A stretch of 64,000 nt of DNA, from assembly GCA_026387355.1 (NCBI GenBank), contig JAPLLW010000015.1:27569-91568 (forward strand). Reading direction: 5' to 3'. The position numbers were made by a program. Positions within the stretch are counted from its first letter, which is position 1, and each line of letters starts with the position of its first letter. Origin of the DNA: Candidatus Omnitrophota bacterium. GTDB taxonomy: Bacteria; Omnitrophota; Gorgyraeia; Gygaellales; Profunditerraquicolaceae. Shown piece by piece: positions 45,001-64,000 of the stretch.

Positions 45001-48000
45001 TTTGGAAGAGATTATAGATCCTAAGGTCGATTTTTACCCCGATAAAAGCGATGAGCGCGCCTGCCAAAGGTGTCTTTTTTCTTCCATGTGCAAGTAAAAC
45101 GCCTATTGCCAAACCCCCATTTTTAGGTTAAAATACAGGTTCCTTTGGAGTAATATGGGCGATTAGCTCAGTTGGTTAGAGCATCTGCTTTCCACGCAGA
45201 GGGTCAGGGGTTCAAGTCCTCTATCGCCCACCACTCTACTCGGTACTTTGTACCTCGTTCGTGGTAAACCAAGATGTTCGAGTAACTCCGAATGAGCGAA
45301 GCGAATCGAGGAGCCATTTTTATGTCTGAGACTAAAAAAATAGCTTTAATTATTGGTGGTAGCCGTGGTATAGGCAAGGCGATTGCCTTGCGCCTGGCTA
45401 AATCCGGGTTTGATCTATGGATAACCTATAAGAGTAATCATATCGCTGCCGAAGAGACTAAAAAAGAGATCGAATCGCTAAAATCTTTCTGTCAGCTTTT
45501 TGCCTTTGACATCTCTGATCATCAGGCGACCAACGAAGCCTTAGGTAAGATTACCGACGAGACCCCGCCGGATGTGGTAGTTTTTAATGCCGGCATTGCC
45601 CGTGACAATCTTATGGTTTGGATGACCAAGGAGGAGTGGGATAGCGTTATCTCTACTAATCTTGATGGGTTTTATAATGTAATGCATGTTTTGCTCTTTC
45701 CAATGTTACGCCAGAAAAAAGGACGCATAGTAATTATTTCTTCAACCTCAGGCCAGATTGGACAGGCAGGCCAGGTGAATTATTCAGCTGCTAAGGCAGG
45801 GCTAATCGGCGCAGCAAAGGCCTTGGCCCGTGAAGTAGGCAGGAAGAATATCTTTGTGAATGTGGTTAGCCCAGGCGTGATTGAGACCGAAATGACTAGT
45901 GATTTGCCAAAAGATAAAATCCTTCCATTAATTCCCCTGCAGCGCTTTGGCCAAGTAGATGATGTTGCATCCGTGGTGAATTTCCTATGTACAGAAGAAG
46001 ATATGTATATTCATGGCCAGGTAATTGGTGTTAATGGCGGCTTGGCAATTTAAAAACCCTTGATTAAAAAATACGATCATATAGTTGTGGGAAGTGGCGC
46101 AAGCGGGTTAACCTTAGCTTTGCTTTTGGGGTTAAATGGCCGCAAGGTTCTTCTTCTTGAGAAAGCCAGCCACATTGGCGGAAGCCTTTGCCGTTTTTAC
46201 AAAGAAGGAGTTCCTTTTGATACAGGATTTCATTTTACAGGAGGGTTTTCTTCCGGAGGCATTTTAACTGACATGCTTCATGTTTTGGGGTTTACCGATA
46301 GCGTTAAGCCTATATTTTTCTCTGCTCCGGGGGCAGTTGTTTTTGTCTTTGAACAAAATGGGGCAGTTTACGATATGCCGTCAGGCATGGAGAATTTTCG
46401 CGTAGCCACGCATAAATATTTTCCGAATGAATCAGCAGCAATTGAGGAGTATTTCAACCGGGTTAAAAAGGTTTGTCAGTCAACAGTAACTCTTGACTTG
46501 CGAAAGATCGCACTTTCTGCTGAACCAATTGATGAAGATTTCGTCAGTCTTGAAGATACGCTCAACGCTTCGACCGCCAATCCTATACTTAAAGGGCTTC
46601 TATCGGTAGTCTGTTTGTGCTATGGGACTAATCCTAAAGAGGTATCGTTTGCTAATCACGCCCGTGTATCTGCGGGATTGTATAATTCGGTAGCGCGTAT
46701 TGAAAATGGAGGCCAAGCATTTATCCAGGCTTTTCGCGATTTTTCTGTAAAATCGAATATAACGATTCTTTGCAATACTACCATTTCTGAATGCGCTAAT
46801 GTAAGAGATGACCGCGTTGGCGAGTTTATTTTGGATAACGGGGATAAGGTTTTTGCCGATGATTGCACCTTTACTATTCATCCGCATGAAATTATAAAGA
46901 TTCTTCCTCGTCAACACATGACAAAGGCTTTTATAGAGAGGGTATCATCACTTGAGACATCTAATGGATTTTTTTCTGTATTTGGTATAGTTGAAAATGC
47001 CGATCCTGCGACCTTTGGCCCTAGCATAACTTCGCTTTTGCCTACTTGTGATATAAACGCCCTTCTTGATCCTCTCTATACTGGTTCCGGGGCCTTAGTA
47101 ATTGTTCGTAGCATTGAGAAAAACAAAGATAAAACGTATTGCGTAATTAATGCCTTTGAGCCGGAGTTTTATTCGCGGCTCAAGCAATGGGCAGATTCTA
47201 AAGTGGGTAATAGGCCTCCTGCGTATCTTGAGTATAAAGAGCGCAAAGTTAATGAAATCAGGGAGCGTATTTGTAAGGCATTTCCGCAATATCGTAGCAA
47301 CCTTAAGATTCTGGGAGCAGCCTCGGCGTTAACCTTTAGGGACTATCTGTTTTCGCCCGAAGGTAATGCCTATGGAATAAAACAAAAAATTGGACAGTTC
47401 AATCTTTTCGGCAAACAGTCTCTCTTGAATATCTATGTTGCCGGACAAAGCGCGATTTTACCGGGGCTGGTGGGAGCGATGCTTTCTTCTTTTATTGTTG
47501 CCAGAAATATAATTGGAAAAGAAGAATTTAGCAGTTTTATCGAGAAAGAATTATGCAATTAAAAAGAGTGGTTATAACCGGGCTTGGCGCGATTACTCCT
47601 TTGGGTAATAGCGTTGGTGAATTAATCTGTGCAATTGAATCAGGCAAGAGCGCAGTTGAATATATCCCGGAGTGGGAAGATACTATCGGGTTGCGTTGCA
47701 AGGTTGGGGCATATGTGCGTATGGAGAATGAAAAGTTAATCCCCCGACAAAGCCGTCGTTCTATGGGGCGCTTAAGCATATTTGCGGTGCAGGCAGCAGA
47801 GCAGGCAATCAAAGATGCCAACATAAGACCTGAGCAATTAACCGGCGGTAGGCTTGGTTGCGTTATTGGTTCAACTATGGGTAGCGCTGAAAGTCTTGCG
47901 GAGGCCTTCGAAATTATGTCTGCGGATAAAGATTTAAGCAAGTTGCCCTCGACTAAATTCTTTCAGTGTGTATCGCATACCGCGGCGATGAATGTAGCCC

Positions 48001-63000: not shown

Positions 63001-64000
63001 CAAGAATTAATGAAATTTATTCCGGCATTACGCAGTAATCCTACCGCTATAATTATCGGTTGCCGTGATTTCAGCCATGAGAATGTTCCGGGGAAGAGTA
63101 AGTTTGGCAGAGGCTTTTCTAATTTCTGGATTACATTAGAAACCGGAATAACCGTAAATGATTCGCAGAGCGGATTCAGGGCCTATCCGGTAGAATATCT
63201 ATCTAAAATGAAGTTATCCGGAGATTTCTACGATTTTGAGGCTGAAGTTTTAACTCGCGGTGCTTGGGCAGGGCTTGACATTAAAGAGGTCCCCATAAAT
63301 GTTTTTTACCCTGAAGAAAAATTTCGCGTCTCAAGTTTCCGCCCCTTTATAGATACCTTGCGTATTAGCCTTATGCATATCCGGCTTATCGGGCGCAGGC
63401 TCTTGCCGATTCCGTATCCGAGAGTTATCCCGGCAATGCATAAAAACAACTATAAAGATATTCTAAAGCACCCGATGGTATTTTTAAAACACCTACTATC
63501 TGAGAATGCTACTCCTTTGGGGCTTGCAGTTGCCGCAGGGGTGGGGATGTTTCTGGGGGTACTACCTATTCTTGCCGGGCATATTTTAGTTACTATTTAC
63601 GTATCAGAGAGATTGCACCTAAATGTAGTAATGGCAGTAGCAATTCAGAATCTATGCATGCCTCCGCTTATGCCGATTGCTTGTATCGAATTGGGTCATT
63701 ATATGCTTTATAAAAAGTGGATTACGGATATTTCATGGCATACTGTTTTTGGGGCAATCCCGGAGCGCATTTGGGAGTGGTTTTTAGGTTCTTTAATCCT
63801 TGCTCCGATTATGGGCTTGATTATCGGAGTAGCCGTATATTTTTCTACCCGGGCAATAGCTAGGAAAAAGAGTAGGCATGGATAATATTGATGGTTCAAT
63901 TCGGATATCTACCAAGAGAAGAGGTAATAAATTAGGGTTTTGGTTTTTTAAGTTTTTTTTGAATTGTTTCGGTCTAGCTGGCGCATACGGGTTGCTATAT

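Follow-up and report, generated by a model that had tools for sequence, protein, structure and literature searches.

An Omnitrophota lipid gene cluster with three radical-SAM genes as a probable anaerobe subtype of the aryl-polyene superfamily

What does a bacterial gene cluster produce when it combines a set of type II fatty-acid- and polyketide-like assembly genes with three radical S-adenosylmethionine (radical-SAM) genes and a carotenoid-desaturase-like gene? The question is raised by a 64,000-nucleotide stretch of DNA, here called the window, from Candidatus Omnitrophota bacterium (assembly GCA_026387355.1, contig JAPLLW010000015.1, positions 27,569 to 91,568 of the forward strand). A first-pass annotation had described in its last third a co-directional lipid cluster with the layout of aryl-polyene (APE) clusters, and had pointed to ladderanes, or more generally to a novel membrane lipid, as the product. 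With somewhat better than even confidence, we read the locus as the first two thirds of an APE-superfamily lipid cluster of an anaerobe subtype, marked by a TIGR04072 protein and a radical-SAM/ApeP fusion, that follows the pathway proposed below. The product is most likely a radical-tailored polyene-type lipid that is exported to the outer membrane.

Between 45292 and 63885 the window carries 19 intact open reading frames (ORFs), all on the + strand, and a 20th is cut by the window end (63878-64000); gaps between the cluster genes are no longer than 53 nt and most adjacent pairs overlap. Domains were assigned to the window proteins by Pfam and NCBIfam scans, and the proteins were compared by BLASTP with those of the E. 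coli CFT073 APE cluster (C_RS05565-05650), which was located in the annotated genome. By this direct comparison of sequences the cluster is placed in the APE superfamily. The FabG-type 3-ketoacyl-acyl carrier protein (ACP) reductase at its 5' end (45292-46053; Pfam adh_short_C2, 9e-51) is 42% identical to ApeQ (E 3e-61), and its true start is probably the ATG at 45322, relatives being 243 aa long. The ApeR-type ketosynthase KS1 (47553-48785; Cys-His-His triad intact, NCBIfam PRK09116 434.6 bits) is 42% identical to ApeR (E 1e-112), the ApeF-like ACP (48786-49043; Pfam PP-binding, DSL phosphopantetheine attachment site) 39% to ApeF, and the second ketosynthase KS2 (57134-58264; triad also intact, N-terminal half divergent) 36% to ApeO. 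An ApeI/FabZ-like hotdog dehydratase (56268-56645), which passes the cut-off of the Pfam family ApeI-like (31.7 bits, cut-off 28.5) and has the histidine of the HFPxxPxxPG motif, shares 32% identity with ApeI, and the 4HBT/YbgC-type thioesterase (56664-57146; Pfam 4HBT_2 and 4HBT) 29% with ApeK (E 4e-18). In the PDB, the top match of KS1 was Acinetobacter ApeR (7f27, E 3e-107) and that of the small dehydratase was Xenorhabdus ApeI (6qsr_A). The APE-like layout of the first-pass annotation is thus borne out by direct homology to Ape proteins of E. coli, Xenorhabdus and Acinetobacter.

The genes for anchoring and export are likewise assigned to the APE type by homology. An ApeD-like LPLAT acyltransferase (49043-49795; Pfam Acyltransferase 2e-18, HX4D motif) matches ApeD with 34% identity over 80 aa, and a family 2 glycosyltransferase with a DUF2062 domain (GT2; 62704-63885; Pfam Glycos_transf_2 and DUF2062) corresponds to the N-terminal half of ApeJ (31%, E 3e-29). 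The C-terminal half of ApeJ is matched (E 1e-17) by the LpxL-like acyltransferase of L007, one of the related loci, which carry L numbers here. As both proteins match it, E. coli ApeJ (558 aa; L099 8213-9889) is a fusion of two genes, and these lie separate and adjacent in the window (62704-64000) and in its relatives. The LolA-like, ApeL-like periplasmic lipid carrier (52571-53221) matches Pfam LolA (9e-18). It is followed by the ApeM-like MMPL/RND exporter (53184-55613; Pfam MMPL, partial NCBIfam HpnN and HAE3 matches), which is 20% identical to ApeM over 802 aa (E 8e-10) and whose start codon is uncertain because the ORF overlaps the LolA gene by 38 nt. The next gene (55606-56268) encodes a putative lipoprotein that is DUF3261-like, weakly so in the Pfam scan (18.5 bits, under the cut-off of 22.3); DUF3261 is also recorded for its homologues, and the gene adjoins that of the MMPL exporter, which is also the position of ApeN in E. 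coli.

Characterised APE clusters (E. coli CFT073, and the apeA-R clusters of Xenorhabdus doucetiae and Acinetobacter baumannii) have in common with the window a type II polyketide synthase (PKS)/fatty-acid synthase (FAS)-like core with an ApeR-type ketosynthase, an ApeO-type ketosynthase plus half-size partner (in the window a presumed one), ApeQ, ApeI/ApeP and ApeK, as well as ApeD/ApeJ-type anchoring enzymes and LolA/MMPL/DUF3261 export; neither has an ammonia-lyase or an enoyl reductase. In contrast to them, the window cluster has a radical-SAM/SPASM domain on ApeP, two B12-type radical-SAM proteins and a CrtI-like flavoprotein, carries a FlxY/PaaK-type ligase in place of ApeH, and is without ApeB, ApeG and ApeA. 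The window family also differs in having ApeJ split into GT2-DUF2062 and LpxL-like proteins and in its hosts, which are strict anaerobes. The first-pass annotation was right in this respect, as three intact radical-SAM genes and the CrtI-like gene are found in no canonical APE cluster. In the literature consulted we found no work tying aryl polyenes to radical SAM, B12 and LolA, and neither an explicit placement in the APE superfamily nor the radical-SAM/ApeP fusion as a mechanistic clue.

The fusion (51090-52574; Pfam Radical_SAM and SPASM) is the signature gene of the cluster family. Structure was predicted with database homologues, and the AlphaFold model of the fusion has a predicted local distance difference test score (pLDDT) of 78.9. 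Foldseek matched the first ~350 residues to the SPASM/twitch proteins SkfB, SuiB, PqqE, MoaA and anSME, and the last ~140 to the ApeP fold (template-modelling score, TM, 0.79). This was further supported by sequence, since the C-terminal domain is 31% identical to E. coli ApeP and its 149 aa gave 6qsr_B (ApeP) as the sole significant PDB match; PF22817 (ApeP-like) is also recorded for homologues of the fusion. The CX3CX2C motif, eight cysteines of the SPASM region and Glu408 on the hotdog helix are invariant in the family. The dehydratase is thus assigned, from homology, to the split ApeI:ApeP hotdog type, with ApeP present as a domain of the fusion protein.

Because the radical-SAM/SPASM domain is fused to a dehydratase subunit, it should act on an ACP-tethered intermediate at dehydration, and the fusion gives a testable pointer to where in the pathway radical chemistry takes place. 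The jawsamycin enzyme Jaw5 and the cystobactamid enzyme CysS, which act on carrier-bound polyketide intermediates, embody the same idea, the radical tailoring of a carrier-tethered chain while it is being elongated iteratively or afterwards, but neither has close sequence kinship with the window enzymes. Jaw5 is a HemN-like radical-SAM enzyme, whereas in the window one radical-SAM enzyme is covalently joined to a dehydratase subunit.

Of the two remaining radical-SAM proteins, both with CX3CX2C motifs, B12rSAM2 (61323-62714) is the clearer case. It matches TIGR04072 (rSAM_ladder_B12) over its full length with 630.8 bits (cut-off 360, E 1e-189), and its Pfam B12-binding and Radical_SAM domains are both above threshold. 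The title of TIGR04072 is 'lipid biosynthesis B12-binding/radical SAM protein', and our literature search found nothing on the family. The next-best families are BzaD and a TsrM-type methylase, and the protein resembles class B radical-SAM enzymes. B12rSAM1 (60085-61344), with an N-terminal Rossmann (B12-like) domain, was assigned from its invariant CX3CX2C motif (C173/C177/C180), NCBIfam matches (best TIGR04013, 55.6 bits, no family cut-off being reached) and predicted fold; both its Pfam domains fall below the gathering thresholds, which qualifies the 'two B12-rSAMs' of the first-pass annotation. Its AlphaFold model (pLDDT 72.5) has AprD4 as top fold (TM 0.71), followed by MgmA, TsrM, MiaB and CysS. 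AprD4 is a cobalamin-independent diol dehydratase, and B12rSAM1 may likewise bind no cobalamin; MgmA, TsrM and CysS are methylases. The modelled folds point to broad classes only, SPASM/twitch for the fusion and B12-like Rossmann plus radical SAM for B12rSAM1, and do not identify a reaction.

The CrtI-like (amine-oxidase family) FAD oxidoreductase (46060-47562; Pfam NAD_binding_8 and Amino_oxidase) had no BLASTP match in the E. coli APE cluster, and its matches to NCBIfam models of the CrtD/CrtI family are partial and far under their cut-offs. The protein is kept in 54 related loci at 44-77% identity.

The arrangement recurs widely. A database search with the fusion protein gave >2,000 relatives, and those with a named source belong to Omnitrophota, Hydrogenedentes, Ratteibacteria and Lentisphaerota. 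When each GTDB species was represented by a single genome, 319 of the genomes scanned encoded a relative. The best 80 of these 319 belong to Omnitrophota, Nitrospirota/Thermodesulfovibrionia, Desulfobacterota, Syntrophales, Planctomycetota, Verrucomicrobiota and Lentisphaerae, and include a Geobacter metagenome-assembled genome (MAG). All window proteins were mapped onto the related loci by tblastn. At least six phyla contribute to a set of ~40 long loci in which the gene order is identical, namely FabG, CrtI-like, KS1, ACP, LPLAT, ligase, radical-SAM/ApeP, LolA, MMPL, DUF3261, ApeI, thioesterase, KS2, a 194-aa protein, B12rSAM1, B12rSAM2 and GT2, and an order kept to this extent is far beyond chance. 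The Geobacter MAG (L092) and the cultured sulfate reducer Desulfosarcina sp. BuS5 (L097) have gene order in common with the window cluster. The catalytic motifs of the three radical-SAM proteins are invariant and their identity across phyla is 54-88%, B12rSAM1 being the best-conserved protein of the cluster (67-88%).

Variation was also seen among the relatives. In L097, opposite-strand AAA_14/DUF4143 ATPase and helix-turn-helix (HTH) genes (2976-5840) interrupt the cluster between the gene at the DUF3261 position and the ApeI-like gene, which suggests an insertion. The radical-SAM set differs in L007 (7900-9976, 17715-19151), where B12rSAM1 is missing and a third B12 radical-SAM protein, HpnR-like (hopanoid C-3 methylase-like, 240 bits), is encoded downstream. 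The Ratteibacteria locus L040 is without the CrtI-like protein, KS1, ACP, LPLAT, B12rSAM2 and GT2, and the contig of a 98%-identical strain (L096) ends inside B12rSAM2.

Where does the cluster end? In this genome its upstream edge is marked by a tRNA-Gly(TCC) gene (45157-45233, + strand; ARAGORN, and Rfam RF00005 with 70.5 bits) 58 nt 5' of the first cluster ORF. The downstream side reaches further than the interval 45322-64000 given in the first-pass annotation. A 100% identical Logan contig of the same organism (L001, 6.7 kb) supplies 186 aa of the last gene, and this product is 55% identical to an L007 protein matching Pfam Lip_A_acyltrans. The terminal 'acyltransferase' of that annotation is accordingly LpxL-like (lipid A type) by the L001 contig, the window itself holding only 41 of its codons (63878-64000, + strand). 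Downstream gene content was taken from the relatives L006 and L007, both metagenome contigs, and L097, in which GT2 is followed by the LpxL-like acyltransferase, an ACP, a third ketosynthase and a Ketoacyl-synt_2-type chain-length factor (CLF). Further downstream come, in some cases after another ACP, a ~430-aa uncharacterised protein and a FAD_oxidored protein and, in some cases after an HpnR-like third B12 radical-SAM protein, an AMP-binding enzyme of the fatty-acyl/aryl-CoA-ligase type. Since the relatives carry these further genes past GT2, the window covers only about two thirds of the cluster.

The two ketosynthases bear on both the substrate and the ancestry of the pathway. For ApeR, stacking of the aryl group by Tyr135 and Phe202 has been proposed (PMC8358021), and in KS1 the equivalent pair is Phe/Phe in 59 of 59 family members, which gives weak support for an aromatic substrate, as read from the alignment. 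KS2 has as its top PDB match 9s5h_B (E 2e-53), the sole top match aligned over the full length; ApeO scores 8.5e-38. The entry 9s5h is the Brocadia fulgida amxFabF heterodimer, its identity being taken from a preprint supplement (bioRxiv 10.64898/2026.05.19.726425). As the nearest solved structure of KS2 is an amxFabF chain, this homology suggests that the anammox pathway and the window pathway share ancestry.

Directly 3' of KS2 in most relatives lies the gene for the 194-aa protein (59504-60088, + strand). As a single sequence it gave nothing significant against PDB, Pfam, NCBIfam or E. coli ApeC. A profile of 22 homologues, on the other hand, matches the N-terminal half of KAS II (1j3n residues 63-190, E 9.8e-8) and 9s5h_B/C (3e-4), and shows no Cys at the active-site position of ketosynthases. 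The label 'CLF-like' of the first-pass annotation therefore stands as a half-size KS-like protein by the profile, and not by any Pfam or NCBIfam match of its own. ApeC is a half-ketosynthase with a single thiolase fold (PMC8358021). Neither the single sequence nor the profile revealed similarity between the two, and the 194-aa protein is presumed, by analogy with ApeC, to be the chain-length-factor partner of KS2. Sub-threshold scores were also noted for KS2 on AmcF (221 bits) and for the CLF-like protein of L007 (13529-14554) on AmcG (30.7 bits); AmcF and AmcG are the type II PKS-like pair of cispentacin, which builds a five-membered ring.

The starter was approached through the PaaK-family adenylate-forming ligase (49792-51087, + strand), which matches the NCBIfam model FlxY end to end with 459 bits (E 1.3e-137). 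FlxY is a 4-coumarate-CoA ligase by measurement, and cinnamate and phenylpropionate are also accepted (PMC3992019). The starter of APE synthesis is 4-hydroxybenzoyl (PMC8358021). We propose, from this sequence match, that the ligase is the starter-activating enzyme. A strict search of the window and of 95 related loci (1.43 Mb), in all six frames, gave no Ala-Ser-Gly motif of the MIO prosthetic group of ammonia-lyases. The idea that an ammonia-lyase is encoded just past the window was rejected, as the relatives have the acyltransferase, ACP, KS and CLF there and the 95 loci lack the motif. The first-pass annotation had taken the missing ammonia-lyase as a trait that distinguishes the cluster from APE clusters. 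However, none is annotated in the E. coli CFT073 APE cluster, so its absence is not diagnostic; among APE and flexirubin types, only flexirubin clusters carry the enzyme, and its absence sets the window apart from those alone.

Flexirubin clusters (Chitinophaga flxA-Y and that of Flavobacterium johnsoniae) are similar in their logic of polyene assembly and export, and three window proteins have their best NCBIfam matches there. The scores are all below the equivalog cut-offs, with 294.5 bits against 340 for FlxB (the reductase), 459 against 520 for FlxY and 123 against 125 for LolA2_flexi. In further contrast, the FlxA tyrosine ammonia-lyase, an MIO enzyme, was found neither in the window nor in the 95 loci, and the general Pfam and NCBIfam scans of the cluster proteins gave no match to a FabH-type (DarB-like) family. 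The description of the flexirubin cluster mentions no radical-SAM genes (PMC3992019).

Homology to characterised Ape proteins, in a cluster whose genes are all intact and conserved, supports a pathway for elongation, beta-keto processing, anchoring and export; we infer the identity of the starter, all radical-SAM reactions and the structure of the product. The FlxY-like ligase would activate a carboxylic acid as starter, an aryl-propenoate or aryl-alkanoate being most plausible, and KS1, and KS2 with its presumed half-size partner, would extend this starter with malonyl units on the dedicated ACP; the third KS/CLF pair and second ACP found just past the window in relatives may join elongation. 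Beta-keto groups would be reduced by the ApeQ-like reductase and dehydrated by the heterodimer of ApeI and the ApeP domain, in which the ApeI-like histidine and E408 on the central helix of the ApeP domain may together make up one active site, of the composite kind seen in FabZ-type enzymes. No match to an enoyl-reductase family was found among the 19 window proteins in Pfam or NCBIfam, and as no such enzyme is encoded, a conjugated or polyunsaturated chain is expected. Oxygen-independent tailoring (C-methylation, desaturation or saturation, or C-C bond formation) could then be carried out by the B12-type radical-SAM proteins and the CrtI-like flavoprotein. The chain may be joined to a glycolipid or lysolipid anchor by the thioesterase, LPLAT, GT2-DUF2062 and LpxL-like acyltransferase, and the MMPL exporter, LolA-like carrier and DUF3261-like lipoprotein would bring the lipid to the outer membrane, a route also proposed for APE lipids.

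Clusters of this type have been described before. Rattray et al. reported in 2009 such clusters in Kuenenia (kuste3335-3352), Desulfotalea psychrophila (around DP1853-1860), Geobacter and Pelobacter, with radical-SAM proteins, phenylacetyl-CoA-ligase-like, phytoene-dehydrogenase-like and glycosyltransferase proteins, a new membrane protein, and several FabF paralogues, non-canonical ones among them (PMC2649909). We likened the window to the Kuenenia and Desulfotalea clusters by literature description and through the NCBIfam model TIGR04072, for which these extended FAS II clusters are the basis. By domain, the component list is the same, with ACPs, FabG and FabZ included; the window copy differs in coming from Omnitrophota and in having a DUF4410 gene and a lipoprotein gene between KS2 and its partner. 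The cluster is thus not a new type, as its description dates from 2009, a curated NCBIfam model exists for it, and antiSMASH reports 'ladderane' clusters in Omnitrophota and other phyla. The locus is best seen as a partial copy within a cluster family that has been known, yet biochemically orphan, since 2006-2009.

Several points weigh against an aromatic polyene as the product. No ammonia-lyase, chorismate lyase or other source of an aryl acid was found in the window and the 1.43 Mb of related loci, and since in addition the ligase stays under the FlxY cut-off (459 vs. 520), the starter may not be aromatic. An ApeH orthologue is absent, the best BLASTP match being a weak one to the ligase (23%, E 1e-3), and so is the methyltransferase ApeB, for which there was no BLASTP match and no methyltransferase Pfam match in the window proteins. 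The CrtI-like enzyme, or the downstream FAD oxidoreductase of relatives, could reduce double bonds and leave a saturated chain. To our knowledge no product of the cluster family has been identified to date, and for this reason the 'novel membrane lipid' of the first-pass annotation is possible. Rattray et al. tied the Desulfotalea cluster to polyunsaturated hydrocarbons and not to pigments (PMC2649909). When Kuenenia homologues were expressed in E. coli no new lipid appeared, the two radical-SAM proteins being undetected, and Kuenenia CrtI-like proteins showed no phytoene desaturase activity there (PMC4790861).

The alternative that survives best, which we consider possible although unlikely, follows Rattray et al. 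in assuming a non-aryl product, that is, polyunsaturated and/or methyl-branched acyl lipids or hydrocarbons formed independently of oxygen ('anaerobic PUFA', for polyunsaturated fatty acids). The substrate of the ligase would then be an ordinary fatty acid, and methylation or desaturation of the chain would fall to the radical-SAM proteins. The sub-cut-off FlxY score and the lack of an aryl-acid-forming enzyme in the window and 95 related loci fit such a route, as do the HpnR-like (lipid C-methylase-like) B12 radical-SAM protein and the fatty-acyl-CoA-ligase-like enzyme downstream in relatives, and Desulfotalea does make C31:8 and C31:9 hydrocarbons (PMC2649909). It accords poorly with a scaffold and export module that are wholly APE-type and with a ligase whose nearest characterised relative is aryl-specific (PMC3992019), and KS1 keeps the aromatic sandwich of ApeR. 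We also count it against a non-aryl product that C31:9 hydrocarbons elsewhere in bacteria are attributed to the Pfa/Ole pathways. On balance we thus prefer the radical-tailored polyene-type lipid.

A bolder extension of the polyene pathway, which we regard as doubtful, is that the fusion docked to ApeI and the B12-type radical-SAM proteins carry out iterative radical C-C/C-H chemistry on the ACP-bound polyene, yielding a structurally new class of outer-membrane lipid in many strictly anaerobic phyla. Candidate reactions are cyclisation, cross-linking, anaerobic desaturation and C-methylation. On this view the anammox Cluster I could be a stripped-down descendant of the older pathway seen in the window.

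Cluster I is central to the ladderane proposal, in which a KS/ACP/CrtI-like/radical-SAM set desaturates an acyl chain and radical-cyclises it to concatenated cyclobutanes. It comprises six genes (KustE3603-3608) that encode amxACP, amxFabZ, amxFabF2/amxFabFmut, a PDH-like protein and a B12 radical-SAM protein, and is now held to be exclusive to ladderane producers (PMC10139942; bioRxiv 10.64898/2026.05.19.726425). The homology of the window to gene sets once proposed for ladderanes was confirmed, in that B12rSAM2 falls in a family whose model bears the name 'rSAM_ladder_B12', KS2 has the Brocadia amxFabF heterodimer as its best solved relative, all component types of Cluster I are represented, a ketosynthase with an inactive partner, presumed in the window, is common to both, and Kuenenia kuste3335-3352 is syntenic with the window cluster type according to Rattray et al. 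(PMC2649909). Still, a ladderane product is very unlikely because of the broad distribution of the family and the result for Desulfotalea psychrophila, which has a syntenic cluster and no ladderanes (PMC2649909). The host is an Omnitrophota bacterium, and the fusion occurs in 319 species genomes, mostly of Omnitrophota, Nitrospirota and Desulfobacterota. We know of ladderanes from anammox bacteria only. The exclusive cluster is, moreover, a separate and smaller one that has no module for export or anchoring; there the inactive ketosynthase partner is a FabF of full length, whereas that of the window is a 194-aa half-KS, and the dehydratase of Cluster I is of the homomeric FabZ type, whereas in the PDB search the small dehydratase of the window is nearer to ApeI/ApeP (E 1e-5) than to the amxFabZ entries (E 0.2-0.6). 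An earlier study noted, and left unexplained, 'ladderane' calls by antiSMASH in Omnitrophota, Desulfobacterota and other phyla (PMC9902471); outside anammox bacteria such biosynthetic gene cluster (BGC) calls should not be taken as ladderane potential.

Lastly, it is highly improbable that the locus is a variant of a housekeeping FAS II operon for ordinary membrane fatty acids, for although FabG, FabF-like KS, ACP, FabZ-like and acyltransferase genes are present and FabG passes one generic FabG cut-off (PRK05653.1-5, 285.8 bits, above 273), FabD, FabH, FabI and AccABCD are not in the cluster, the two ketosynthases score 360 and 238 bits, far under the fabF equivalog cut-off of 494, and the LolA/MMPL/DUF3261 module is dedicated and the dehydratases are of ApeI/ApeP type.

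The cluster family is among the most widespread orphan lipid pathways of anaerobes, being present in Omnitrophota, Thermodesulfovibrionia, sulfate reducers, Geobacter and Planctomycetota. Cultured and tractable carriers such as Geobacter are a better entry to it than uncultured Omnitrophota, and the window copy adds little beyond those. If Cluster I did derive from this older pathway, a solution of the system in Geobacter, or in another tractable host, would reveal the chemical logic by which ladderanes are formed.

The remaining cluster genes are accessory. All genes listed in the first-pass annotation are present as intact + strand ORFs at the expected places, and Pfam and NCBIfam agree with its labels, with the qualifications given above and one more. 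Of its 'two lipoproteins', only the protein of 222 aa encoded at 58857-59525 (+ strand) has a lipobox (LTGC), and it has no Pfam or NCBIfam match; the other (58279-58803, + strand; Pfam DUF4410 31.5 bits, with a gene call in L001) is a secreted protein with a plain signal peptide. Both genes are lineage-specific insertions that separate KS2 from its 194-aa partner, the two being adjacent in most relatives. Homologues of the DUF4410 protein were found only in L016 and L096 among the relatives and those of the lipoprotein only in L006, L016, L045, L054 and L069, so that L016 carries both, and the 78%-identical relative L003 has neither. A reading of cluster genes as pseudogenes was ruled out, the ORFs being full length compared with homologues and the catalytic motifs intact. 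Scans for promoters and terminators returned fewer sites than shuffled controls and were uninformative.

The rest of the window is also rich in radical-SAM genes. A second co-directional array on the + strand (388-37001) contains nine more, giving twelve in 64 kb: five of B12 type (388-1734, 10162-11601, 14334-15824, 15815-17275 and 25512-26942), two of SPASM type (3778-4731 and 32266-33330) and two with an HMPTM zinc ribbon (11617-12975 and 12982-14334). The array also has an asparagine-synthase-like gene, two DegT aminotransferases, a PMT_2 glycosyltransferase, a MacB/FtsX permease and a carbamoyltransferase, and looks like a locus for glycan or envelope modification. Three large ORFs in or beside the array, of 611, 641 and 564 aa (8323-10158 and 19325-21250 on the + strand, 28781-30475 on the - strand) had no Pfam match at E <= 1e-5, and the last of these is the sole large minus-strand ORF around the array. 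Directly 5' of the tRNA-Gly gene, 38781-44836 encodes an AddA/UvrD-like helicase (1065 aa) and a PD-(D/E)XK AddB-like nuclease (952 aa). In L003 a PDDEXK_1 gene occupies the same upstream position, and an Rce1-like gene is inserted before FabG.

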